From: Candidatus Hadarchaeota archaeon
GTDB lineage: Archaea; Hadarchaeota; Hadarchaeia; Hadarchaeales; JAGGTB01
Length of the DNA stretch: 64,000 bases
Direction of reading: 5' to 3'
Assembly: GCA_964608515.1 (NCBI GenBank)
Contig: CAZSNS010000004.1
Span: 1,600-65,599 of the forward strand
A program made the position numbers and the translations under genes. The notes below the pieces were generated by a model that worked only from the letters and a program-made list of their open reading frames with translations, was not told where the DNA came from and did not search any database. Positions 3,339 through 37,846 of the stretch are shown here, one piece after another; within the stretch, counting starts at the first letter, position 1, and each line of letters begins with the position of its first letter.

Positions 3339-4547
3339 ATGTCGAAACGTGAAGAAATTGAAAGGTCGAAAGTTCAGGAAATAGCTTCTGAATACGATCC
3401 TGAAAATATTACAATTGGTATTTTCGGTTCTCATTCCGCCTTACCGATTGGTTATTCAGCTAAAAAGGCTGATTTTTCCACGATGATTTTCACAAAAAGT
3501 GGCAGAGAAAGAACCTACGCCGAACACAACTCAGCCTTATATGATGACATTATGGTGCTGGACGATTGGGAGGAAATGCTTTCAGAAGAAAAACAAGGAA
3601 AAATGAGAGAAAAAAACGTAGTGTTTATCCCGAACAGGTCCTTCGTCGTGTATGTGGGTTTAGAAAATATAGAATCCGATTTTAAAGTGCCTCTTTACGG
3701 AGCCAGACACTTATTACGGGCTGAAGAAAGAAACGCATCTCCGCCGAGAAACCAGTATTATTTATTAGAACAATCCGGGATAAGAACACCTAAACTTTTC
3801 GATAATCCTGAAAATATCGATAGACTCTCCGTTGTAAAAGTCCATCAAAAAGACAACCCTCTAGAAAGAGCTTACTTCTACCCCAGCAATCCAGAAGAAT
3901 ACCATCAAATGGCTGAAGAAAAAATTGAATCAGGAGAAATAAGTGAGAAAGGGTTGGAAGAGGCAGCGATAGAGGAATTTATTGTTGGTCCTATGTTGAA
4001 TGCTAACTTTCACTCGTATGCATTGAATCATTCTGATTCGAAAATATTTTCGAACGATATTGATTTGGTTGGTTTCAGTGATCGAGAGCAAACTAACGAG
4101 ACAGGTTTTAGAAACCTTCCTGCTGATTTACAGTTGGAGCTTTCGGAGAAAGATCTTACCCGGACGAATGAGGAAATCTGTCACCAAGGTAAAACTCTTA
4201 GAGAATCGAAACTGGAAATGATTTATGAAACTGCAGAATCACTTATGGAGACTTTAAATGAAGAAGTCCCGCCGGGAATGATTGGGCCGATTGGTATTCA
4301 GGGTGCGGTTCCTACTGATGAGGGTAATCGTCCTGAGTTTGTGGTTTTTGATTTGAGTTTTAGGGTTCCTGGTGATCCTGCGATGGGTCCGACTTCCCCA
4401 TATCTTAGGTATTTGGATGTTAAACATTCTGAAATTTATGGTGAGTTTATGCCTTCCGATTGGAAGGTTGAGGATCCGGTTGATTTGTCAATGCTTGAGA
4501 TAGGAAAAGCTGCGGAAGAAGGAATTTTGGAGAAAATAGTTTCTTGA
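3339..4547 (+). CDS. purP: PurP paralog (FAICAR synthetase family), tandem to the first
   Basis: 402 aa. IGIFGSHSALPIGY N-terminal motif and the same ATP-grasp architecture. It starts 11 bp after the preceding purP. Confidence 0.6.
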   Translation: MSKREEIERSKVQEIASEYDPENITIGIFGSHSALPIGYSAKKADFSTMIFTKSGRERTYAEHNSALYDDIMVLDDWEEMLSEEKQGKMREKNVVFIPNRSFVVYVGLENIESDFKVPLYGARHLLRAEERNASPPRNQYYLLEQSGIRTPKLFDNPENIDRLSVVKVHQKDNPLERAYFYPSNPEEYHQMAEEKIESGEISEKGLEEAAIEEFIVGPMLNANFHSYALNHSDSKIFSNDIDLVGFSDREQTNETGFRNLPADLQLELSEKDLTRTNEEICHQGKTLRESKLEMIYETAESLMETLNEEVPPGMIGPIGIQGAVPTDEGNRPEFVVFDLSFRVPGDPAMGPTSPYLRYLDVKHSEIYGEFMPSDWKVEDPVDLSMLEIGKAAEEGILEKIVS

Positions 4548-4551
4548 ACTA

Positions 4552-5061
4552 TTAATCGTCTTTCTGTGTTTCATCTTCTTTTTCTAGCTTATTTTTTAAT
4601 TCTTCACACCATTCTTCGATCTTTTTTGTTTTCTCTTCCTTGTTTTTCGAAACTTTACTAACCACAAGTTTTCCGATTGGTTTTTGATCATTTGCCAATT
4701 CTTGCATAATAGAGAAAGTGTTTTGGGTTTCATCCGAATCATTTGTATTGAAAAAAGCGATACGGTTATCTGATAAATCAAATCTTTTGAGATAAACCCT
4801 CATAGCCGGCGGTAATTTTCTCGCCCAGACCGGGCAACCAAGTAATACTAAATCATAATCATTTGGCGAAAACTCTGGAGGTTTAATTTCTGTCTCACCT
4901 GCCACCATCGCCTCAACCGCCGATCTTAAAAATCCAAATTTTCCAGTTCTATCTGTTTTGTCTATTATCTCTTCGATTTCTGCATCTAAGAATTCTGCTA
5001 TTTTTTCGGCTACAGATTGAGTTTTTCCTGATCGGGAATAGTAGATTACTAGTGGGTTCAT
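4552..5061 (-). CDS. flavodoxin-like protein
   Basis: 169 aa. N-terminal VIYYSRSGKTQSVAEKIAE FMN-binding loop motif. Confidence 0.55.
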   Translation of the reverse strand: MNPLVIYYSRSGKTQSVAEKIAEFLDAEIEEIIDKTDRTGKFGFLRSAVEAMVAGETEIKPPEFSPNDYDLVLLGCPVWARKLPPAMRVYLKRFDLSDNRIAFFNTNDSDETQNTFSIMQELANDQKPIGKLVVSKVSKNKEEKTKKIEEWCEELKNKLEKEDETQKDD

Positions 5062-5094
5062 TCTGGTTTTTGTTTTGTGTTGGTTTGATAAATG

Positions 5095-5120
5095 TTTTTT
5101 GTTATGGGTGTAACAAAAAA
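5095..5120 (+). repeat. 25-bp palindromic intergenic element, copy 1 (TTTTTGTTA-TGGGTG-TAACAAAAA)
   Basis: Exact sequence read. 9-bp arms with a 6-nt loop and T/A tracts on both sides. Confidence 0.9.
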
Positions 5121-5167
5121 TTTTGAAGAATGTTTTAAAGGATAATAGTAAATTTTAGAACGATTTT

Positions 5168-6556
5168 ATGAATTCGAAAGAAGGATTGACTATTTTAGTT
5201 TTAATTTGGATCATTACTTTGCCCGTATTTCATCATTTTTACCCTTTCGTAGGGGAAGTTACTGATAATCCTTCATACCCTCCTGGGATAGACCATTCTA
5301 CTAGAGAAAATAGGTACAAAAATTACAATCAGTTGGCGAGTAAGATTGATGAAAATATTCCCGTTTTTAATGTTATTGGAAATCATGAATTGAAATCTAT
5401 CGAAAATTATGAGGAAGTTCATAACGATTATTATGGATATTTTCAATACTCGGACAAACCTTCAGCTGCCCCTAATAGTTTATCTCCATATTATTGGTAT
5501 TCCTGGAACCTTAACGGTTACCACTTTATCGCGCTAAATACAAACGAAAATTATACAAATCCATTTCTTCATGGTCACGGCCCTAAACATTTTTTTGGCG
5601 GAGCTTTTTCGATGACCAAAAAACAAATTGAATGGCTTAAGAATAACTTGAAAAAAACTGAAAATCCGACAATCGTCTTTTGTCACGTTCCTCTGGACGG
5701 TTACGGTCTGACAAGTTATGACACTCTCACTAATCAAGAGAAAATAAGAAATATTTTTGAAAAAAGCGGTAAAGTTGCGGCAGTTATTCAGGGGCATACA
5801 CATCATATGGCTAGTCCTGAATATAACGGGTATAAATGGGTTGATAATGGAATTCCTTATTTTTATTTACCAGCTCTAGGCTCACCTCTCGGCGGGCCTA
5901 GATATTCTGTTTTGAATCTAATGCCTGAAAAAAAGAGGATTGAGATTAGAACTGAAGCTATAGAAGAGGTAACTTCTCTTTTTTCGGATGAAAATTGGAA
6001 TGTTTCTTATCAAAAAAATCATGCTGAATCTTTCAAAATAAAAACTAGTTTCCACGTTTCTGAAGGTAAGAATCATTTTACTCTTAGAGACTTAGATTCA
6101 GATGTAGAATATGAAGCTAGTATTGGTTGGGAAAACTATACAGAGAACGAAATGGGAGATGTTGCAAATAAAGTTTTGAAAAAAAGAATTGTTAAAGGTC
6201 AGAGTAAAAATTTCAAGTTTAAACCCACCGAAAGTTTTGATTTCAGTAACATCGCTGGGGAAGATAATAAACCAGTTAAGATAGAGAACGTTAAGACTGT
6301 CGGTGATGTGACTAAGATCATTTACAGTTCAAGCTCCGAACTCTTCAAAACAAATCTCCAAATAAATAATTCAACTTCAAGAAATGTAGAAATTGCTGTT
6401 ATCAACGATTTTCACTCGGGTCCAAAAAGACTAGAATTATTTTCCCAAGAAAATGCAAACCGAATTTTTAAAAAATTTTCAGGAATTGTAAATTCACAAA
6501 AATTCAATTTTGTTGTAAACAATGGGGACTGGATAGACGGTCACCAAGCGAGGTAG
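5168..6556 (+). CDS. calcineurin-like metallophosphoesterase, N-terminally membrane-anchored or secreted
   Basis: 462 aa. Hydrophobic N-terminus, GNHE motif (VIGNHE), and the later GHTHH block of metallophosphoesterases. Confidence 0.5.
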   Translation: MNSKEGLTILVLIWIITLPVFHHFYPFVGEVTDNPSYPPGIDHSTRENRYKNYNQLASKIDENIPVFNVIGNHELKSIENYEEVHNDYYGYFQYSDKPSAAPNSLSPYYWYSWNLNGYHFIALNTNENYTNPFLHGHGPKHFFGGAFSMTKKQIEWLKNNLKKTENPTIVFCHVPLDGYGLTSYDTLTNQEKIRNIFEKSGKVAAVIQGHTHHMASPEYNGYKWVDNGIPYFYLPALGSPLGGPRYSVLNLMPEKKRIEIRTEAIEEVTSLFSDENWNVSYQKNHAESFKIKTSFHVSEGKNHFTLRDLDSDVEYEASIGWENYTENEMGDVANKVLKKRIVKGQSKNFKFKPTESFDFSNIAGEDNKPVKIENVKTVGDVTKIIYSSSSELFKTNLQINNSTSRNVEIAVINDFHSGPKRLELFSQENANRIFKKFSGIVNSQKFNFVVNNGDWIDGHQAR

Positions 6557-6559
6557 ATT

Positions 6560-7003
6560 ATGGAGAATTCCGTAAATTTAGACTCTCATTCCGAGAAAAA
6601 TGTTCTTGGGAGGCGGATAATCGGCGCTATTATTGATATCTTGTTAATCGTGCCGATTACATCCTGGATACTTTATTTTTGTCATAAGTTCGGTTTGATT
6701 GATTTAGGATCTATAGCTTATATTTTAGCAATTGGAACATTTGTCGGCTTATTGTTCATCTACACCTCTCTTTCAGAGGGGAAATCAGGACAAACTTTGG
6801 GCAAAGTAATTGCTAAAATTAAAGTTGTGAAAAAAGACGGGCGCGAATGTACTTATAAAGCATCATTGGTTAGAAACTTAGTCAGAATATTCCCCGACGG
6901 TTTATTTTTATATCTCGTCGGTTTAATTTCCATGATTTTCTCAGATAAGTCTCAAAGACTGGGAGATTACATGGCTAGTACTATTGTGGTGAAAGTTGAG
7001 TAA
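6560..7003 (+). CDS. RDD-family membrane protein
   Basis: 147 aa. RRIIGAIIDILL RDD-like N-terminus plus TM helices. Confidence 0.45.
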   Translation: MENSVNLDSHSEKNVLGRRIIGAIIDILLIVPITSWILYFCHKFGLIDLGSIAYILAIGTFVGLLFIYTSLSEGKSGQTLGKVIAKIKVVKKDGRECTYKASLVRNLVRIFPDGLFLYLVGLISMIFSDKSQRLGDYMASTIVVKVE

Positions 7004-7030
7004 TTTTTTTGTTATGGGTGTAACAAAAAA
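7004..7030 (+). repeat. 25-bp palindromic element, copy 2
   Basis: Exact match. It directly abuts the stop codon at 7001-7003. Confidence 0.9.
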
Positions 7031-17194: not shown

Positions 17195-17286
17195 GGGGCG
17201 GTAGTCTAGCTAGGTTTCGGACACCAGCTTCGGGACCAACAAGGCGAAAAAGCTGGAGATCCGGGGTTCGAATCCCCGCCGCCCCA
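17195..17286 (+). tRNA. tRNA-Pro (anticodon CGG) with a 16-nt intron at canonical position 37/38
   Basis: Hand-folded cloverleaf: acceptor GGGGCGG/CCGCCCC, D-stem GTCT/GGAC, anticodon stem CCAGC/GCTGG, loop TTCGGG[intron 17235-17250]A, T-arm CGGGG-TTCGAAT-CCCCG, discriminator A. No encoded CCA. Confidence 0.7.
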
Positions 17287-17301
17287 TCGCACCAAAGGTT
17301 C
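17275..17301 (+). repeat. direct repeat DR1 (3' end of tRNA-Pro plus 15 bp trailer); putative attL
   Basis: CCCGCCGCCCCATCGCACCAAAGGTTC. Repeated at 36903-36929 (26/27 identical) and partly at 37825-37846. Confidence 0.8.
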
Positions 17302-17396
17302 GAATCTTTCCCAATTTTTAGTGAAGGAAAAGGGTCAAGGGGGTTTCAACCTTAAGGACTGTTACAAATCGATTGGAAAAGCCGAATAGTCTCGGA

Positions 17397-17431: not shown

Positions 17432-17743
17432 TTACTGAGTTTCAACACCAGCGTTTATCATTTCGTTCCATTTTTCTATAACCTCTTGACCATTCTCAGT
17501 TATGGAGAGGACATCACTGTCTTTTCTCCCTATTTCTGGTTCGTCCTTTGCTTCTATAAGATTCATGTCAATTAGTTTTTCTATCCTATCGTAGAGGGTT
17601 TCGTAAGATCCTCCTATTTTTTTCTGTATTTCGGATAATATTCTCTTTTCCTTCTTAACGAATCGAAGAATTTCCACTGTTTTTGAGTTTCGGAGTAGTT
17701 CTTCTAATTTCCGCCTTTTTCTATCTGCAAGTTTTCTACTCAT
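17432..17743 (-). CDS. small winged-helix DNA-binding regulator
   Basis: 103 aa. wHTH-like core (VEILRFVKKEKRILSEIQKKIGGSYETLYDRIEKLIDMNLIE). It is divergent from the ImmA-like gene. Confidence 0.4.
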   Translation of the reverse strand: MSRKLADRKRRKLEELLRNSKTVEILRFVKKEKRILSEIQKKIGGSYETLYDRIEKLIDMNLIEAKDEPEIGRKDSDVLSITENGQEVIEKWNEMINAGVETQ

Positions 17744-17928
17744 TTCATTTCATAATTAATATCCTAAATAAATAAAGTTTACTTAATATGTAAATATTTG
17801 CTCTTATTAGTTTACATATTTACGATATCCGTAAAGAATTAGTTTACATATGGTGTTAAATAGACCAAATAAAGCAAAATTTAAGCGTTAAATATAAATA
17901 ACAGGTAAAGTAAACTTTCTAATGAATT
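17744..17928. promoter_or_regulatory. divergent promoter/operator region with a repeated GTTTAC-containing motif
   Basis: 13-bp direct repeat TTAGTTTACATAT at 17807-17819 and 17839-17851. Inverted AAAGTTTACT (17774-17783) and AGTAAACTTT (17909-17918). The region is very AT-rich. Confidence 0.4.
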
Positions 17929-18864: not shown

Positions 18865-21273
18865 TTAGGAATACTCTTCTTCTATTTTTTCCACGATTCT
18901 TTCTTGGATTTTGTCCATTATCTCTACTTTTTTTTCACTTTCCCCTCTTTCACCTATCACATCTACAGTTTCTTTACAAGCCTTTATTATAATATCGGGA
19001 TTTACATCCTCTCTAAATTTCTCAACAGCGGCCGTATTTGCACCACGCTTATCAGGTTCTGAATAGTGTGAAATTTCTGTTGTCCATATATCATCAAAAA
19101 GTTCAAAAAAATCCTCTTTAGAACTAGGTAATTCCTCTCTTGAATATTTATGAATCTCTTCTTCTATTTTTTTGAATATTTCCTCAGTGAGGAGATATTC
19201 TTCTACCTTTCTACTTTTATTCTTTCTCCACTCTTCAAGATAGTTTTCTTTAAGTTTTTCAGTGGGTTTATAATCCATATGGGTTACTACTTTTTCGTTC
19301 TCAATTAAATCTTCTTTCGGTTGATTTAATTCCTCTGCCAAATATTCTAAAAAATTAGTTACAATCTTGCTGACAATAATTTCGTTTTTAGCGTCATCCG
19401 GATGGATGAACAAGAAAAAATTCCATAAGCGTTCATATCTTTCTTCGGATAGCAACTCAATTTCTTTCTGTATGTCTAAGCCTTCACTCCTATTTGTCAG
19501 AGGCTCTAATCTAACTTCGTCATGTTTTTCTTGAATGAATGTTCCTATCTCTTTAGCTTGAGGGTGTCTTTCAGGACAATACACAAAGGTATCCCTTTCC
19601 ACCTTACATTCACTTTCGATTTTTTCTAATTCTTCAGGGGTTGCGTGATAAGTGTCTATAAAATCATTAAGATTACTAGCAAGGTCATTAAAAAGAGTAA
19701 ATGGAATTATTGCTCCTACTTTGTTAAGTTTTCTTTCTTTAAACCTAGTCAGTAATTCATTATCAGCCCTACTTTTTATGTAATGAATCAGTTCGCTATC
19801 AGTAAGATTAAGAATAGACTTTTCTTCACCCTCATAAGGATTAGAGTCCTTAGGTTTTCTCCCTCTTAATAATTTGAGTAACATAGTACTTGCTGCTGCT
19901 TTTGTTTTATGGTAGTATACCCTTTCAGCTAAAGTATGCCTAGTATCCATTATATTGAGTATTTCTGTTATTATATCTCCTTTTTCTGCTCCCCTTTTAC
20001 CATAAATAGATAAACCTAAACGGAGGGGAGAAGTCGTGTCGTATTCAACCATAGAGTTATCTTCTCCTATGATGAAATATCTGAATATTCTCTCGTCATA
20101 CCCTTTCGATTTTATACCGCAGTTTCGTAAGTCCCGTCGAATGTAGTCTAACATATCAGCACAGATAGTATTTCCGACAATATCTGCCATAAAAGGGTGG
20201 AAGATATCTCTTTCAGAAAATTTCTCTAAACTTTTTGAAAGTTTTTCGAATATTTCTTCTACTCTAGGTTGGGATTCACCGTTTTTTACTTCAGATCTAA
20301 TGTTTTCAAGTTTGTCTTCAAAGCTTTCAATTTTACCTGTATGTTTAATTTCATGTTTGAATTTGAGAATAAGGAAGAGCAAGTCTCTAAGATCTTTATT
20401 AGAGATTGGTGATATCCATCTTCCATCATTTTCTTCGGGAAGCCAATCATCCTTCGGATTAACAAGGATTTTTCTAATTTCGCTATTTTCGTCAAAAAGT
20501 AAATACCATAATCTGGGACTTTTTATTTCATCATGCCCTTGAAATTCATCGAACTCATCTTCTAAGGTGTGTCCAAAAGGAATATGGGTTATATCGTGAA
20601 GAAGTGCGGCTATTGAGACAATTTTCTTTATTGATTTCATTTTATTGGAAAATTCTTTGTATGAATCCCTAGTATCTGGATTGGAGTAGTATTTTGAACT
20701 TCCGTTCAAATAAACGTTTAGTTTTCCATCTTCTTTTCTAATATTGTGATGGTATCCCTTATTTTTGTCGTTTAATCTCCACAATCGGTTTTCTTCTACA
20801 ACCTCAACGGTAAAGTTCTCAGAAAGAGTAAGACCGTTTCTCTCGTACTTTTCTTTAAGTGTCGTCGTTTCGGTTTCATTTAAGCTTTCCACTAGATCAC
20901 CTATATTTTCTTCTATAGTAAACAGATACTCATCCAAGAAAATATCAGAAATTTTTGAATTGAATGGTTCGAGATCCAACCTCTTATGGTTTTTCGGTAT
21001 GTTATTACATATTTTTTTAGCTAAATGATATACACCAATTGAATGCTGAAACCTTGTATGTTTGGCTCCTCGGTAAACGAGGTCGGCGAGGTTTAATTGT
21101 TTGAGTCCATCTAATCTTTCAAATTCTTTAGTATCAATTAATTTTTCCGCCAGGCCAGAAAATTCTATGTCTCCCCAGATATTATCTTTATAAATCATTC
21201 TATTCGCACCAGCCATCCCCCTAGAGGAGGGTGATGAGATTTTATGAGTTCGTTTAAATAAAAAACTTACCAT
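18865..21273 (-). CDS. dGTPase/SAMHD1-like HD-domain dNTP triphosphohydrolase with ~300-aa charged C-terminal extension
   Basis: 802 aa. FQHSIGVYHLA (H), AALLHDITHIPFGH (HD), and the DMLDYIRRD motif typical of the Dgt/SAMHD1 family. The conserved N-terminal block (NIWGDIEFSGLAEKLIDTKEFERLDGLKQL) suggests the true start is at ATG 21216 or 21198. Confidence 0.55.
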   Translation of the reverse strand: MVSFLFKRTHKISSPSSRGMAGANRMIYKDNIWGDIEFSGLAEKLIDTKEFERLDGLKQLNLADLVYRGAKHTRFQHSIGVYHLAKKICNNIPKNHKRLDLEPFNSKISDIFLDEYLFTIEENIGDLVESLNETETTTLKEKYERNGLTLSENFTVEVVEENRLWRLNDKNKGYHHNIRKEDGKLNVYLNGSSKYYSNPDTRDSYKEFSNKMKSIKKIVSIAALLHDITHIPFGHTLEDEFDEFQGHDEIKSPRLWYLLFDENSEIRKILVNPKDDWLPEENDGRWISPISNKDLRDLLFLILKFKHEIKHTGKIESFEDKLENIRSEVKNGESQPRVEEIFEKLSKSLEKFSERDIFHPFMADIVGNTICADMLDYIRRDLRNCGIKSKGYDERIFRYFIIGEDNSMVEYDTTSPLRLGLSIYGKRGAEKGDIITEILNIMDTRHTLAERVYYHKTKAAASTMLLKLLRGRKPKDSNPYEGEEKSILNLTDSELIHYIKSRADNELLTRFKERKLNKVGAIIPFTLFNDLASNLNDFIDTYHATPEELEKIESECKVERDTFVYCPERHPQAKEIGTFIQEKHDEVRLEPLTNRSEGLDIQKEIELLSEERYERLWNFFLFIHPDDAKNEIIVSKIVTNFLEYLAEELNQPKEDLIENEKVVTHMDYKPTEKLKENYLEEWRKNKSRKVEEYLLTEEIFKKIEEEIHKYSREELPSSKEDFFELFDDIWTTEISHYSEPDKRGANTAAVEKFREDVNPDIIIKACKETVDVIGERGESEKKVEIMDKIQERIVEKIEEEYS

Positions 21274-22857: not shown

Positions 22858-23664
22858 TTAGCTATCTCTTCTCTCTTCAAAATAGTCTTGAGCTTTCACT
22901 TCAATAGAGAAAGGTTCAATATTTTCACAATCCTCTAAGACAGAGTTCACTTTTTCAATTTCTTCTCTAAGTTCTTCTATTTGTTTCCCCGAAACTTCTT
23001 CCTCATGAACTATCACTAAGATTTTTCCCCCTTCTCTCACTAAAACAGATTCTATATTCATGTGGCCCTTCCATATTTCCTCATCTAGTTCTTCTTGAAG
23101 AATATCATAAACTACTTCTGGTGCTCTACGATTATCAATGTCACATGAATCAGCTATACGGAATAAAGTAGCTAACAATTGGACTTTTATCTCATCTCCG
23201 CAACTGTGAGTACGTTCTGGAATATCATCTAATTCTTCTTCTGAACGATGTCTTTTAACCACTGTCTTAAGACCACTTTCAACAGGATTATCTAAATCAA
23301 ACAAGTAGTTTTGTCTCTTTAATGTATCCCACATTTCACAAGATTTTTCGGCATGACTTTCTCTATCCTCCAAGTTCCCAATATCATGGATCCAAGCTGA
23401 AGCATATAAAATAAAAATTTCTTTTTCATTCAATTCCCCCCCTGACTCTTGATAAATATCAATAACATCATTGAGGTATCCAATAATTCTCTTAGAATGC
23501 TCATAACCGTGATCTGTAAATTTGGGAATTTCTCGCGGTATATATCTCAAAATATAAGTAATTGCCTTTTTTATCACATACAGTTTATGTTCGTATGCAG
23601 TGCTTCCATTTCCCTGATTAGCTAGTTTTTTGTATTTTTGATTATTGTTCCCCATCAACAACAA
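22858..23664 (-). CDS. HD-domain metal-dependent phosphohydrolase/nuclease-like protein
   Basis: 268 aa. H (DHGYEHSKRI), HD (AWIHDIGN), H (HAEKS), H (RHRSEE) and D (RIADSCD) in HD-superfamily order. Confidence 0.5.
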   Translation of the reverse strand: MLLMGNNNQKYKKLANQGNGSTAYEHKLYVIKKAITYILRYIPREIPKFTDHGYEHSKRIIGYLNDVIDIYQESGGELNEKEIFILYASAWIHDIGNLEDRESHAEKSCEMWDTLKRQNYLFDLDNPVESGLKTVVKRHRSEEELDDIPERTHSCGDEIKVQLLATLFRIADSCDIDNRRAPEVVYDILQEELDEEIWKGHMNIESVLVREGGKILVIVHEEEVSGKQIEELREEIEKVNSVLEDCENIEPFSIEVKAQDYFEERRDS

Positions 23665-24341: not shown

Positions 24342-25457
24342 ATGGGTTTAGACGATTTAGAGAAGTATAAAGAGGAAGGAGAGACCTTTGGCTTAAAAGA
24401 CATAATAGATGAAAAAGAGACTTTTGATTTAAAAGAGGAATTTGAGGAGTTTATTGGAGATCATATCAAAGAACTATCTGAAAAAGATAATATTATTGCA
24501 CTAAAGAGAAAAGGGAATGTTTTTTTTGAGCATTTGAGGGAAAAATTTCCATCTTTAAAAACCCTTGGACATCTTTCACAAAATCATATCCATGTAAAAA
24601 AGGAAGAATTAGACAATTCTAAGATAATAATATTCGATGATTCAATTGATGAGGGAAATAATTTTGGAAATATCATGAAAGTATTTGAGAAACTAAATAT
24701 AAATCCGAAAGAAGTTTTAGTTCTAAATGTAATAGTGAATGAAAATGCAATCGAAAAAATAAAAGAAAAATATCAAGATGGTGACCTAAAATTTTTATAC
24801 CTCGAATCAGTTTCAGATGAGGAATACGGTAAGCTGTATCCTAAATGCATGTTTGGATATATAGATTATATAAATGAATCCTTAAACAAAGATTTTTCAA
24901 TTATTACCTTAGAATTGGATAAGAGAATTAACATTGAAGAGCTTAAAGAATGCTTTAATGAAAAATTTGATATAATGGATTTAGAACATAAATTAGATTT
25001 GGAGAGTTTAGAAAGAAATAAAGAACATATAGTCTCGAAGATTTCTTTGGACGCTGAAAAGTTTTTTAATAATAAAAGGGAAAGTTTCCCAGAAATAGAA
25101 AATATGAAGCAAACGAAAGTAAGAATTTTCTTAAGAGATAGAGAAACTAACAGCTCTATTGATATTATACCAATTTTAATCCCAGAAAATCCTCCTGTAA
25201 TGGAGTGTAAAGATAAAGAGATATGTAAACTTGATGAATTTAAGAAAAAACATCTAGAAAACTCAGAGCCTGATGAAGAATGCTTGGAAAGATACTGTAT
25301 AAAGTGTTTACAAGAAAACCTATCTAAAGATTTCGATAATAAATTTCAAAGCTATTTAATAAAAAAATTGAAAAAAAAGGGTATTCAAATAATGAGAAGC
25401 AAGACTGAATATCCAATAATTCCTGATTATTTCCCCCTTCTTGAATTTCCAACCTAA
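24342..25457 (+). CDS. PRTase-like (phosphoribosyltransferase type I fold) domain protein with Cys-rich C-terminal extension
   Basis: NIIALKRKGNVFFEHL followed by KIIIFDDSIDEGNNFGNIMKVFEKL...VLVLNVIV resembles the PRPP-binding loop (hhhhDDhhxTGxT) of type I PRTases. C-terminus has CKDKEICKLD...CLERYCIKC. Confidence 0.35.
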   Translation: MGLDDLEKYKEEGETFGLKDIIDEKETFDLKEEFEEFIGDHIKELSEKDNIIALKRKGNVFFEHLREKFPSLKTLGHLSQNHIHVKKEELDNSKIIIFDDSIDEGNNFGNIMKVFEKLNINPKEVLVLNVIVNENAIEKIKEKYQDGDLKFLYLESVSDEEYGKLYPKCMFGYIDYINESLNKDFSIITLELDKRINIEELKECFNEKFDIMDLEHKLDLESLERNKEHIVSKISLDAEKFFNNKRESFPEIENMKQTKVRIFLRDRETNSSIDIIPILIPENPPVMECKDKEICKLDEFKKKHLENSEPDEECLERYCIKCLQENLSKDFDNKFQSYLIKKLKKKGIQIMRSKTEYPIIPDYFPLLEFPT

Positions 25458-25981: not shown

Positions 25982-26872
25982 ATGAGCTTACGAGATTTAT
26001 ATTTGGATAGATGGAAACGAGTGAGGGCCGCGGGGATTAAAATATATGATAATAAAGGTCTAGAACAGGCAATTAATTTTATAAATAAAAATTTGAATGA
26101 TCCTCGTAAAATTGCAGGATTGGAAGCTGAACTTCTCTTCTATGATGAGTACAAGGAAAAGCATTCTTTAATACCTACTACGCTGATGGATGATATGCTA
26201 AAATGTGATTTTGCTGGTGATTATAAAGGTGGAGCGGCTCGTTTTGATGTGACGACGAACCCCGAATATAAAGATCTTTCCGAATATGAGAGTCTTCAAG
26301 AGCAGGGAGAATATTATATCGTCGTCGTTGATAGAGAGGGGAAAGATTTCCAAATATTAGATATAAACTTTCCTACATGTTCCTTTTGTGAAGGGTTAGA
26401 GGATAAAAAAGGGAGGCTTATTCCGATAGTAAATATTTCTAAACTTGGTGGAGAGTCAGTATGTAGCTCTCGTTTGAGATTTTCTAGAATATGTTCTTAT
26501 TGTGGAAAAGAAGAGCAGATTGCCTATGATGAACTATTGGAATTTTCTCCTTCATCAATCCGTTATGAGGTGGAGAAAAGATTTGAAGAGCGACTTAGGT
26601 GGGCAGAGGAAGAACGTGGTGAAGAAAAAAGGAAAGAAATAGAGAAAGAATATGAAGAGACATTAGAAGAAGAGCTAGAAGGTTATGCTAGTACTATTAA
26701 AGATTTCTGTAAAAATCAGTATGGAGGAATACCTAGGTTAGTTGGTAGTCCTGGGGGTAAGATGATTCATGGAGAAGTGGTGGAACGCTTTGAGCCCTTT
26801 TGGGTGCATCCGACTATTGATGAGTTTTTTGATCCGTTAGCAATTTCTGATCTTGTTCCCCCCCGTCCATAA
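25982..26872 (+). CDS. hypothetical Zn-finger protein (two CxxC pairs)
   Basis: 296 aa. CSFCEG...CSYCGK, with a charged coiled-coil-like C-terminus. Confidence 0.3.
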   Translation: MSLRDLYLDRWKRVRAAGIKIYDNKGLEQAINFINKNLNDPRKIAGLEAELLFYDEYKEKHSLIPTTLMDDMLKCDFAGDYKGGAARFDVTTNPEYKDLSEYESLQEQGEYYIVVVDREGKDFQILDINFPTCSFCEGLEDKKGRLIPIVNISKLGGESVCSSRLRFSRICSYCGKEEQIAYDELLEFSPSSIRYEVEKRFEERLRWAEEERGEEKRKEIEKEYEETLEEELEGYASTIKDFCKNQYGGIPRLVGSPGGKMIHGEVVERFEPFWVHPTIDEFFDPLAISDLVPPRP

Positions 26873-29022: not shown

Positions 29023-29032
29023 GTTGAATATT

Positions 29033-29422
29033 ATGCCGGTTAATCCGAAGGATTTTTTTGAGATTTCGCAAATGTTTACGGCCGAGATTGGTAGTGAGAT
29101 TTCTTATAGAACTGCTATAAACCGTGTTTACTATAGCTTGTTTCATCTTGTGAAAAACACTACTAAGGAGATTGAGGGTTACAAGTACAAAGGGAAGTCA
29201 AAAGATCATGGTATAACCATAGAGGCTGTAAAGGATATTTGCGGTAAAGACATAGCTGATGATTATCAAAGTTTATTTGAAGCAAGGAAAGACAGTGATT
29301 ACAATTTAGACAAAAAGATAGATGAATTAGAATATGATCATTGGAAACATAAATACAAAGAAATAAGTGAAAAATTTCGCAAGGAAGCGCCGGAATATGA
29401 GAAACTTGAGAAGTTCATTTAG
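29033..29422 (+). CDS. HEPN-domain protein
   Basis: Rx6H motif in TAINRVYYSLFH, in an alpha-helical context. It starts 11 bp after the preceding stop. Confidence 0.45.
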   Translation: MPVNPKDFFEISQMFTAEIGSEISYRTAINRVYYSLFHLVKNTTKEIEGYKYKGKSKDHGITIEAVKDICGKDIADDYQSLFEARKDSDYNLDKKIDELEYDHWKHKYKEISEKFRKEAPEYEKLEKFI

Positions 29423-31609: not shown

Positions 31610-32803
31610 TTACAGTTTATTCAAAAGTGTATCGTAAATATCATCAATTGTGGCTTCTAGACCCCAAGCGAAGTTTGCAACTCTTCTGAAAATATCTGAA
31701 GTTATTCGAAATCTATTAGGTCTTCTAAAATTATGATTTAGGTTCTTTTCCCCCTCTACTTTTTCCCTAATCGACTCTAACTTCTCTGCATTTTCCGGTT
31801 TTCCTTCGGTTGGTTTTAATTCATCCATAACTCTTCCAGGAATCATGTTTGAGAAGGATATCCGGAAAATGTAGTCCCAATTTGACCTACCCATTGTGTC
31901 CTGATAAACTTCATTTAATACATTCATTAGTTTCTCTCTATTTTTTGTCAGTATATTAAGCAGTGCGTCTAATCCTCTCTGGTCAAGAAAATCTAGAGAT
32001 CTCTTAAGGAAAAATAATAAATCATCATGACTCAATGAATCCAGTTTATTACTTTGTTCGTAAATCAGCTGTAGCATTCTCGCTCCCTTGGAGAGAGTTA
32101 CAGCCCTATCTTTCATTTTCCAAACTAATGGTAGGAGTTCCTTTACTTCATTTTTGGTTATTTCTTCGTATTCTCCGTCAGAGTCGATTACACCATTATA
32201 TAATTTAGTTCTAATATTCCTTACCGATTCTCTAAAAGGAGAATTACCCACATAGAGGTTATAGATGAGATTGGATCTTTTAAACTCCCTTTCTAAGTCT
32301 TTTGTAGTCCAGAGCTCTACCTCGGGTTTTTCATCAGCTGTTTCTAAAAATGATTGGGTGGCACCCTTTGTATATAAATAGATTTTTCTATCAGCATCTT
32401 GTTGATGGAGTAATTCAAGTTGTGATATATCTTTTTGCATTGGCTTTCTTTTCACTCCGATCAGAATAGTTTCTGAATTATTATCACATTCGAGATCTAC
32501 GCCTTTTTCGTGTGATGGGTCGTTTTCGTGCCGCCATCTTACTTTATATCCTAGGCACTCAAAGTGTATTTTTAAGAGTGCGTGAATCTCTTTTTCCTGA
32601 AAATCGGTCCAAGGGATTTTTGTCTCTTCCCACTCTCTTAGCTCAGGCGGCAGAGATTCTTCCGAGTCCTCATCAAAATTTTCATTCATTTTTATAGGTC
32701 TATCTTCATTTGAGTAGGCTAATGATTTAACTGTAACTAAATAGATGAATAGAATAACTAAGATTTTTTTGATAAGAAAGAGAATTAAAAAACGAAATGT
32801 CAT
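31610..32803 (-). CDS. N-terminally membrane-anchored hypothetical protein with possible restriction-endonuclease-like core
   Basis: 397 aa. N-terminal TM helix. HFECLGYKVRW...KGVDLECDN...ETILIGVKRK resembles Mrr/NERD-like PD-(D/E)xK cores (weak). Confidence 0.3.
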   Translation of the reverse strand: MTFRFLILFLIKKILVILFIYLVTVKSLAYSNEDRPIKMNENFDEDSEESLPPELREWEETKIPWTDFQEKEIHALLKIHFECLGYKVRWRHENDPSHEKGVDLECDNNSETILIGVKRKPMQKDISQLELLHQQDADRKIYLYTKGATQSFLETADEKPEVELWTTKDLEREFKRSNLIYNLYVGNSPFRESVRNIRTKLYNGVIDSDGEYEEITKNEVKELLPLVWKMKDRAVTLSKGARMLQLIYEQSNKLDSLSHDDLLFFLKRSLDFLDQRGLDALLNILTKNREKLMNVLNEVYQDTMGRSNWDYIFRISFSNMIPGRVMDELKPTEGKPENAEKLESIREKVEGEKNLNHNFRRPNRFRITSDIFRRVANFAWGLEATIDDIYDTLLNKL

Positions 32804-33872: not shown

Positions 33873-34802
33873 TTGACTCCTTCTCGTTACAGTAAACAAG
33901 CAAGAAGCAAAGTTCTTAAGGAGGAATTTAATTATCTAGAATCGATGGATATACAATTAAAAGATTCAGAATTAATTACTGATACTGTTAGAAATGTTAA
34001 TGAAGATATTGGGAATATAGTATCTAACGCAGCGTGGGTACTTGATGGGGCTACTAGTCTTTCTGATAAAAATATAACTCCACTAAAAACAGAAGCAAAA
34101 TGGTATGTTGAAAAACTCAATCATTATTTTGAAAATCACATGATGGATAACTCAAGTAAAGAACTTTCTTCAATAGTTAAAGAGTCAATTAAGAAGACAC
34201 GATTAGAGTTCTTTGATTTTTTAGACAAAGAGATAGATGAAGTAGATGAACCAGCTGCTAGTTGTGCCATGGTTAGGTGGGAGAATAATATATTAGAGTA
34301 TTTCGTTCTATGTGACTGCACATTTGTTCTTTTTAGAAACGGAAAGGTGGTAAAAAAAATAACAGATGACAGAATCGACAAGTTCGAAGAAGAGATTAGA
34401 AAAAAAATTAAGCATTTGATTGAAGATAGGAGAATGTCTCTCACGAATGCTCGTAGAAAAGTTTTCCCAATAATCAAAAAAGTTCGGCGTTTAAGAAACG
34501 AGGCAGGGAATTATTGGGTTCTCAGTTTTGACCCAAAAGCTGTAGAAAAAGCAATTCATGATAAGATCGAACTAAAGAAGGGCGATGAAGTCTATCTTTT
34601 TACCGATGGATTTGGTCGTATAGTAGATAAATACTCAGAGTTTGAGGACTGGCAAGAGGCAATTGAATATATAAATAGCCAAGGAGGAGAAAAAGTTTTT
34701 TCTTTGCTTCGAAGAATAGAAAAAAATGATGTGGAAGGAGAAAAATACATTCGAACGAGGGCATCCGATGATGCCACCCTTTCTATTCTAAAGTTTGGTT
34801 AA
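33873..34802 (+). CDS. possible PP2C/SpoIIE-like (PPM-family) phosphatase-like protein
   Basis: 309 aa. WVLDGATS (DGxxG-like), YLFTDGFGR (DGxWD-like), ASDDATL (terminal DN/DD block). Their order matches PPM motifs but the match is weak. Confidence 0.3.
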   Translation: MTPSRYSKQARSKVLKEEFNYLESMDIQLKDSELITDTVRNVNEDIGNIVSNAAWVLDGATSLSDKNITPLKTEAKWYVEKLNHYFENHMMDNSSKELSSIVKESIKKTRLEFFDFLDKEIDEVDEPAASCAMVRWENNILEYFVLCDCTFVLFRNGKVVKKITDDRIDKFEEEIRKKIKHLIEDRRMSLTNARRKVFPIIKKVRRLRNEAGNYWVLSFDPKAVEKAIHDKIELKKGDEVYLFTDGFGRIVDKYSEFEDWQEAIEYINSQGGEKVFSLLRRIEKNDVEGEKYIRTRASDDATLSILKFG

Positions 34803-36902: not shown

Positions 36903-36929
36903 CCCGCCGCCCCATCGCACAAAAGGTTC
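36903..36929 (+). repeat. direct repeat DR2 (copy of tRNA-Pro 3' end plus trailer); putative attR
   Basis: CCCGCCGCCCCATCGCACAAAAGGTTC versus DR1: 26/27 identical. There is no tRNA body upstream. Confidence 0.8.
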
Positions 36930-37824: not shown

Positions 37825-37846
37825 CCACCCCATCGCACCAAAGGTT
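37825..37846 (+). repeat. direct repeat DR3 (partial third copy of tRNA-Pro 3' end/trailer)
   Basis: CCACCCCATCGCACCAAAGGTT. 19 bp are identical to 17282-17300, including the CACC found in DR1 but not DR2. Confidence 0.75.

Follow-up and report, generated by a model that had tools for sequence, protein, structure and literature searches.

A stretch of 64,000 nucleotides from Candidatus Hadarchaeota archaeon (GenBank assembly GCA_964608515.1, contig CAZSNS010000004.1, positions 1,600 to 65,599 of the forward strand; hereafter the window) carries side by side the gene of a SAMHD1-type HD enzyme with a long C-terminal tail and that of a zinc metallopeptidase of family M78. At the assessable homologous loci from archaea and bacteria, enzymes that have such a tail are always accompanied by an M78 gene and those that lack it never are. 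This points to an undescribed two-gene module made of a tail-bearing deoxynucleoside triphosphate triphosphohydrolase (dNTPase, acting on deoxynucleoside triphosphates or dNTPs) and an M78 protease. Both proteins belong to recognized families and have intact active sites, and their genes lie in a variable island flanked by a tRNA gene. The association between tail and partner is a strong one and holds in archaea as well as in bacteria.

The features of the pair are listed below by their positions in the window. Residue numbers are those of the 777-residue protein read from the ATG at 21198.

18865..21273, minus strand: SAMHD1-like HD enzyme, whole open reading frame (ORF), intact, 802 codons counting from the first ATG
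19324..21198, minus strand: SAMHD1/EF1143-type catalytic core, residues 1-625 (HD lobe and C-lobe), assigned by profile, fold and alignment
20674..20931, minus strand: 86-residue insertion that spans residues 90-175, after the first His and before the HD dyad, assigned by alignment and model
18868..19323, minus strand: C-terminal helical tail, residues 626-777, rich in Glu and Lys, assigned by model and alignment
19270..19272, minus strand: codon of Y643, the one position of the tail region that is nearly invariant by alignment, predicted to be in a coil linker past the last core helix
17929..18849, plus strand: partner gene, 306-residue IrrE/CapP-like M78 zinc metallopeptidase with H114-E115-xx-H118 and E147

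Co-occurrence of the tail and the M78 gene

Metagenome assemblies, species genomes of GTDB and viral contigs supplied the homologous loci, in whose ORFs relatives of the enzyme and of the M78 protein were sought by profile search. This led to 82 assessable non-redundant loci, the window included, from archaea and many bacterial phyla. Three linked loci with split ORFs (L019, L050 and L057) were left out of the scoring, and one tail-bearing locus (L005) ends at a contig edge. An M78 gene is found near all 41 enzymes having at least 93 residues past the conserved W592 and near none of the 41 enzymes having 58 or fewer (Fisher p of about 5e-24, shared ancestry being ignored). The M78 gene of the window is the conserved partner of the enzyme and not an incidental neighbour. 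As a stretch of 93 residues or more past this Trp predicted an M78 neighbour in 41 of 41 loci, the rule can serve to annotate such genes.

At most linked loci, the M78 gene is located directly downstream of the enzyme gene and on the same strand, overlapping it or separated from it by a few bases, and it encodes 122-374 residues, mostly about 240-350. In a crude neighbour-joining tree, the tail-less enzymes of about 420 residues form one clade. Another tail-less subgroup, of 526-595 residues (L006, L007, L009, L010 and L012, from Planctomycetes and Anaerolineae), is nested inside the M78-linked clade, and the M78 gene is missing in all three of its members that could be judged downstream (L006, L007 and L009). 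From its place in the tree, this subgroup looks like a joint loss of the tail and of the partner gene.

The enzyme and its partner

As judged by profiles, alignments and predicted structure, the enzyme belongs to the SAMHD1/EF1143 branch (COG1078), with every catalytic residue in place. The Pfam HD model matches it above its cutoff (31.5 versus 22 bits), and a profile of 34 family members significantly matches SAMHD1 chains of the PDB (E values of 1e-28 to 1e-31). The AlphaFold2 model, with a predicted local distance difference test score (pLDDT) of 84 and a predicted template-modelling (TM) score of 0.79, was compared with known structures by Foldseek. It retrieved SAMHD1 from C. elegans and from human and EF1143 from Enterococcus (structures 6pwy, 3irh and 8gb1), with E values of about 1e-12 to 1e-13, alignments of about 650-690 columns and target-normalised TM scores of 0.6-0.68.

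The HD quartet and the DxxDYxxRD motif, on which the original prediction relied, are all present, as RFQH52S, LLH201D202ITH205IPFGH210TLEDE and CAD348MLDY352IRRD356. The core holds H52, H201, D202, H205, H210, D348, Y352, D356, R420, Y428, H430, C541-P542, K549 and W592, and the metal quartet H52, H201-D202 and D348 is invariant across the 34 family members. HMMER aligns R164, H167, H206, D207, H210 and H215 of SAMHD1 with R49, H52, H201, D202, H205 and H210, and its D218, D311, Y315, D319, R366, Y374 and H376 with E213, D348, Y352, D356, R420, Y428 and H430. As nearly all of these catalytic and substrate residues are invariant or nearly so among the 34 members, the catalytic machinery is intact. 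By alignment alone, the allosteric site of SAMHD1 would be partly kept: D137 is retained, Q142 is replaced by E27 in this enzyme (it is Q in the family), R145 by D30 and K523 by P542.

The description as "dGTPase/SAMHD1-like" must be divided. The profile and the fold uphold an HD enzyme of dNTP triphosphohydrolase type and of the SAMHD1 kind, whereas a Dgt-type dGTPase is rejected by scores far under every cutoff: 32 versus 152 bits for TIGR01353, 15.4 versus 400 for NF041026 (anti-phage dGTPase) and 17 versus 383 for NF003701. The matches to dGTPase models are limited to about 30-60 residues around the HD motif, and the PADLOC dGTPase model gives a weak score of 26.5 bits.

Concerning the start of the gene, the family alignment places the N-termini of homologues 3-10 residues ahead of the conserved [LI]Y[RK]D strand. 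The true start is therefore probably internal, as had been proposed, at the ATG at 21198 (777 residues, with GGTG 8 nt upstream) or at the ATG at 21216 (783 residues).

The original prediction also saw a 300-residue extra domain at the C-terminus, about half of which stands. Family conservation reaches residue 600 or so (invariant C541, P542, K549, Y588, L591 and W592), the YCPxxxPQAKE motif is aligned by HMMER to the FYCK523 region of SAMHD1, and closer homologues show Pfam HD_assoc_2 over the stretch ahead of this motif. Residues ~450-625 are therefore an ordinary SAMHD1 C-lobe, and the real extension comprises the last 150 residues or so (626-777). These are indeed rich in charged residues (21% Glu and 13% Lys), and they are predicted to fold as five or six helices preceded by a coil linker. 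Pfam searches with the tail alone, the C-lobe segment alone or the insertion alone gave nothing significant. A full HMMER scan of 1.84 billion representative proteins with the tail retrieved only the protein itself and, through many short stretches, two long repetitive proteins.

The tails of the linked enzymes are almost unalignable, with the exception of a single nearly invariant Tyr, and as far as these alignments tell the tail is fast-evolving. This Tyr, Y643 in the context HMDYKP (AYRKVR or RYVD elsewhere), sits in coil just beyond the point where tail-less enzymes end, and could be where the partner protease recognizes or cuts the enzyme. As for the insertion at residues 90-175, H52 and H201 are 149 residues apart here and 36-85 residues apart in the 75 homologues having both motifs intact, none of which shows it; the insertion is lineage-specific. 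It is modelled with low confidence as a beta-meander.

The M78 gene ends 15 nt from the enzyme gene, stop codon to stop codon. Its product matches Pfam Peptidase_M78 with an E value of 2e-14, and the M78 zinc site is intact since H114, E115, H118 and E147 are invariant in 30 aligned partners. A profile of the partners matches IrrE/PprI (8slm, 3e-19; 3dte, 7e-18) and CapP (7t5t, 1e-15) in the PDB, over the peptidase and HTH-like (helix-turn-helix) regions and up to model position ~207-223 of 288. In the same way, Foldseek with residues 1-205 of the structural model retrieves 3dte, 8sln and 7t5t, which are IrrE, a PprI complex with single-stranded DNA and CapP (E values of 5e-4 to 8e-4). The best PADLOC models are CapP (1.6e-20) and RmrA (3e-15), the latter being matched over positions ~190-314 of 380, that is, in the peptidase part alone. 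The Pfam scan of the 306 residues detected no HTH, so that the N-terminal Xre HTH of RmrA is missing. A GAF-like sensor domain, which in proteases of the IrrE/CapP type forms the groove for single-stranded DNA, is plausible at the C-terminus of the partner.

The relatives that it most resembles, IrrE and CapP, are proteases stimulated by single-stranded DNA that cut the C-terminal region of a partner repressor (bioRxiv 10.64898/2026.05.16.725639). No cognate gene for an HTH repressor is conserved at the homologous loci, HTH_3 being found in 2 of 133 flanking ORFs, and the sole feature that covaries with the M78 protease is the tail of the enzyme itself.

Proposed mechanism, rival explanations and known systems

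We favour, with moderate confidence, a module of two genes whose SAMHD1-type dNTPase, potentially toxic, would be governed by an IrrE/CapP-like protease acting through the tail of the enzyme, most likely for antiviral or anti-plasmid dNTP depletion. The functional claims made here (hydrolysis of dNTPs, contact between the two proteins or cutting of one by the other, the triggering cue and action against viruses) are inferred. The enzyme would be potentially toxic as it could drain the dNTP pool, and the protease would restrain or license it via the tail. The analogy with IrrE and CapP suggests a protease that responds to a cue of infection or DNA damage such as single-stranded DNA. It would then act on the tail, most simply by cutting the linker around Tyr643, and the released core would resemble the tail-less stand-alone enzymes. 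Depletion of dNTPs would halt the replication of the invading virus or plasmid. Cleavage near Y643 that frees an active core is a tentative part of this scheme, which is drawn from the analogy with IrrE, CapP and ImmA and from the co-occurrence of tail and partner. Clover sets a precedent in this respect, as its anti-phage dNTPase is toxic alone and requires a partner regulator, which restrains it (PMC12265719). A broader proposal, which we regard as possible but doubtful, is that of an undescribed immune system found across archaea and bacteria, in which an IrrE/CapP-like sensor protease would remove a fast-evolving autoinhibitory tail upon infection and thereby license a SAMHD1-type dNTPase.

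Several points weigh against the favoured explanation. As the loci are phylogenetically related, the count over 82 loci overstates their independence. In the window, the M78 and enzyme genes are convergent, unlike the co-transcribed layout of most loci; this convergent layout is also found at four actinobacterial loci (L026, L027, L042 and L043). The tails are so poorly alignable beyond one Tyr that a common cleavage site is a guess. Residues 212-306 of the partner, the presumed sensor domain, are modelled with a pLDDT below 50. Many bacterial loci have ordinary housekeeping neighbours, so that enrichment in defence islands is not established statistically. Lastly, the M78 regulators known to us cut HTH repressors and not enzymes.

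Part of these data would also fit a toxin-antitoxin system comparable to RosmerTA, where the M78 protein would not activate the dNTPase but neutralise it, either by binding to its tail or by trimming this tail all the time. The labile partner would disappear upon infection or once the mobile element is lost, and the toxic enzyme would then be freed. The co-occurrence of tail and M78 gene agrees with binding as well as with cleavage, the partner matches RmrA antitoxin models with E values down to 3e-15, and the cassette occurs beside integrase, resolvase and toxin-antitoxin genes. Moreover, ImmA-type proteases are a hub antitoxin domain associated with many unrelated toxins in variable gene order (PMC10440598), and the partner in Clover can restrain the toxicity of its dNTPase (PMC12265719). 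We nevertheless consider this scheme unlikely. The RmrA matches stop at the peptidase part and the Xre HTH typical of this antitoxin is missing, the length and profile of the partner are closer to those of the sensor proteases IrrE and CapP, and its invariant HExxH+E argues for selection for proteolysis and not for mere binding. A stress module foreign to immunity, in which an IrrE-like sensor of DNA damage tunes the dNTP pool for repair or replication of the host, appears distinctly unlikely. It would agree with the role of IrrE/PprI as a regulator of the DNA-damage response and with the response of CapP to DNA damage (bioRxiv 10.64898/2026.05.16.725639), and some loci do lie beside a ribonucleotide reductase gene (L167), dnaA/dnaN or housekeeping genes. 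However, the distribution of the pair is rare and patchy, a close relative lacks it, and the island that carries it here is bounded by att-like repeats. Elsewhere its neighbours include DISARM, pAgo and restriction-type genes or it is on the backbone of a mobile element, and the tail evolves very fast, as a conflict predicts.

Two further explanations make the enzyme independent of the M78 protein. One of them is a local switch like ImmA/ImmR, where the M78 gene and a divergent winged helix-turn-helix (wHTH) gene serve an integrated element and a self-sufficient HD enzyme is adjacent by coincidence. The divergent orientation of these two genes, the operator-like repeats between them, the location of the M78 gene outside the operon of the convergent HD gene and the nature of the island as an integrated element all suit this idea. 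It becomes improbable in view of the 40 other assessable loci where an M78 gene accompanies a tail-bearing enzyme while no HTH gene is conserved, and of the four further loci with the convergent layout. The other is the reading of the original prediction, a stand-alone defence enzyme of dGTPase type with an accessory fused domain and unrelated neighbours. It could draw on the weak matches to dGTPase models around the HD motif, but it is made very improbable by the dGTPase scores, by the SAMHD1/EF1143-like fold and profile and by the strict co-occurrence of tail and M78 gene: the tail marks a subfamily that is always accompanied by an M78 peptidase gene.

Nucleotide depletion serves against viruses in animals, through SAMHD1, and in bacteria, through dCTP deaminase, the Dgt-type dGTPase and Clover. 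To our knowledge, the bacterial enzymes so far shown to defend by dNTP hydrolysis (the anti-phage dGTPase and CloA of Clover) all belong to the Dgt branch. SAMHD1 depletes dNTPs as an antiviral factor, and its C-terminal tail is a regulatory region targeted by viral antagonists (PMC3321004). With SAMHD1 (human, mouse and C. elegans ZK177.8) and EF1143, the present enzyme shares the two-lobe fold, the H..HD..D metal site and the catalytic and substrate residues. It differs from them by an identity of about 15%, the lack of a SAM domain, the 86-residue insertion, the helical tail of about 150 residues and allosteric residues that are partly kept, whereas SAMHD1 and EF1143 have no neighbouring M78 protease gene.

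The anti-phage dGTPase of Dgt type is an HD-superfamily dNTPase that starves phages of dNTPs (Tal et al. 2022, in the account given by PMC12265719). Clover associates the dGTPase CloA with CloB, a nucleotidyltransferase that makes an inhibitory nucleotide (PMC12265719). These systems also rely on HD-superfamily dNTPases, and Clover follows the logic of enzyme plus regulator proposed here. However, the enzyme of the window belongs to another branch of the superfamily and its regulator would be a protease instead of a nucleotidyltransferase; the 25 commonest Pfam families in the 133 flanking ORFs include no nucleotidyltransferase.

In the pairs IrrE/PprI-DdrO, CapP-CapH and ImmA-ImmR, the M78 peptidase has, like the partner described here, an HExxH+E site followed by an HTH-like region in a protein of about 290-300 residues. 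These pairs include an HTH repressor, whereas none is conserved here and the only conserved candidate substrate is the tail of the enzyme. RosmerTA (toxin RmrT and HTH-M78 antitoxin RmrA) likewise joins an M78 gene to a variable and potentially toxic effector in variable gene order, but the present partner has no N-terminal Xre HTH and the effectors form one defined family of enzymes that bear a dedicated tail.

PADLOC-DB 2.0 (2023) contains no system model for this enzyme, which it recognises weakly as 'dGTPase', and a pairing of HD/SAMHD1 with M78/ImmA/IrrE proteins was not found in the literature searched. Here the SAMHD1 branch occurs in prokaryotes as a mobile, patchy two-gene cassette with a protease partner, and it offers a testable counterpart of SAMHD1 immunity in archaea and bacteria. 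It may represent a new way of silencing a toxic dNTPase, by tail and protease instead of allosteric nucleotides, and the first protease of ImmA/IrrE/CapP type whose substrate is an effector enzyme. If this is true, depletion immunity in the style of SAMHD1 would exist in prokaryotes in a regulated form, and proteases of the ImmA/IrrE kind would act directly on an effector enzyme instead of a repressor.

The island, its neighbouring genes and the distribution of the pair

The pair is carried by an island of 19.6-20.5 kb located beside a tRNA gene and an Orc1/Cdc6 gene; the window includes genes for Cdc6 and TFIIB, which indicate an archaeon. Its edges are marked as follows.

17195..17286, plus strand: intron-containing tRNA gene at the left edge of the island (Rfam, 52 bits; missed by ARAGORN)
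17282..17300, plus strand: attL-like 19-nt core CCCCATCGCACCAAAGGTT, overlapping the 3' end of the tRNA gene
36910..36928, plus strand: att-like core, second copy, mismatched at 1 position
37828..37846, plus strand: third copy of the att-like core, exact

From its anticodon loop TTCGGGA, read by eye, the tRNA is probably a tRNA-Pro(CGG). The repeats of CCCCATCGCACCAAAGGTT about 19.6 and 20.5 kb downstream of it (chance expectation of 0) bound the island in the manner of attL and attR, and the 0.9 kb that separates the last two copies is a possible second remnant. No integrase was detected in the island with Pfam or PHROGs.

Comparison with a relative, GCA_964400045.1 (contig CAYNSN010000001.1; L165/L166), confirms that the enzyme gene is inside a variable and mobile island. 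The nucleotide identity is 80-85% up to position 17304 and again from about 37941. Between these flanks, 83% identical, the relative lacks the island and has a single copy of the repeat and a segment of about 8 kb whose genes (adh_short, flavin reductase, GH30/LamG and CCG-Fer4) are unrelated. None of the island proteins has a homologue in this segment of about 8 kb. The site next to the tRNA and Orc1/Cdc6 genes is a replacement hotspot. Since this relative with syntenic flanks lacks the enzyme gene, the latter is not a housekeeping gene conserved at this locus, an alternative that the original prediction had considered.

The other genes and signals close to the pair are the following.

17432..17743, minus strand: 103-residue winged-helix regulator, divergent from the M78 gene, locus-specific
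17786..17851, no strand: operator-like repeats in the wHTH/M78 intergenic region, two copies of ATTAGTTTACATAT and an inverted ATATGTAAA
21443..21556, plus strand: 37-residue CxxC...CxxC zinc-ribbon ORF, divergent from the enzyme gene, uncertain as a real gene

The 14-nt direct repeat ATTAGTTTACATAT starts at 17806 and 17838, with a spacing of 32 nt, and the inverted ATATGTAAA at 17786; this operator-like motif is not repeated upstream of the HD gene. The zinc-ribbon, M78 and wHTH genes are located where they had first been placed. However, the grouping of the last two as an "ImmA/HTH module" is correct only in part, since the enzyme has the ImmA-like gene as its conserved partner and the HTH gene is not conserved with it. 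Membership in the module was rejected for the wHTH, the zinc-ribbon ORF, the membrane protein, the 202-residue protein, the HD-CE protein and the PRTase-like protein, which have no counterpart in 84 homologous loci. The zinc-ribbon ORF, not being conserved beside homologues, is thus probably outside the module, and the small ORFs found upstream of the enzyme gene at other loci are unrelated among themselves.

A gene of the PF05014 family (nucleoside 2-deoxyribosyltransferases) adjoins the pair in five loci from different phyla:

L002, 11235-11738
L027, 8740-9225
L043, 1158-1784
L057, 3427-3927
L080, 8917-9414

Enzymes of this family act on deoxynucleosides, which a dNTP triphosphohydrolase releases from dNTPs along with triphosphate. 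The presence of the gene at five linked loci fits this deoxynucleoside chemistry, and it may be a third, optional component working on the deoxynucleoside product.

Relatives of the enzyme of any form are rare and patchy, being found in 238 of 185,579 species genomes of GTDB. Among viral contigs, one only carries a full-length relative, together with an M78 gene. The other viral matches are SAMHD1-like genes of giant viruses, partial and mostly limited to the N-terminal 60-100 residues of the query, and PHROGs also match the N-terminal part of the enzyme only. A typically viral family was rejected on this basis, the long form being rarely carried by viruses in the viral contig search. Elsewhere, the pair adjoins a pAgo gene (L004), a PLD-SNF2 helicase with an MmeI-type methylase (L002) or DISARM proteins, and at L169 it lies beside integrase, resolvase and HigBA-like genes.

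The island of the window includes other genes of conflict type, such as those of an HD-CE protein (22858-23664, minus strand, E value of 9e-25) and of a PRTase-like protein (24342-25457, plus strand, a weak match). A protein encoded at 25982-26872 (plus strand) has weak matches to HEPN/RES-NTD1 and to a ClpX-type zinc finger, a restriction-type Mrr_cat protein is encoded at 31610-32803 (minus strand), and a PP2C-like phosphatase at 33873-34802 (plus strand) is followed by a membrane protein of 367 residues. The only virus-like gene noticed in the island is a 132-residue ORF at 29024-29422 (plus strand), which matches PHROG 5176, a virus family of unknown function, with an E value of 3e-12. At locus L167, a class II ribonucleotide reductase gene (4032-7007) is located about 1 kb upstream of the pair, which may be a coincidence or a link with dNTP metabolism.

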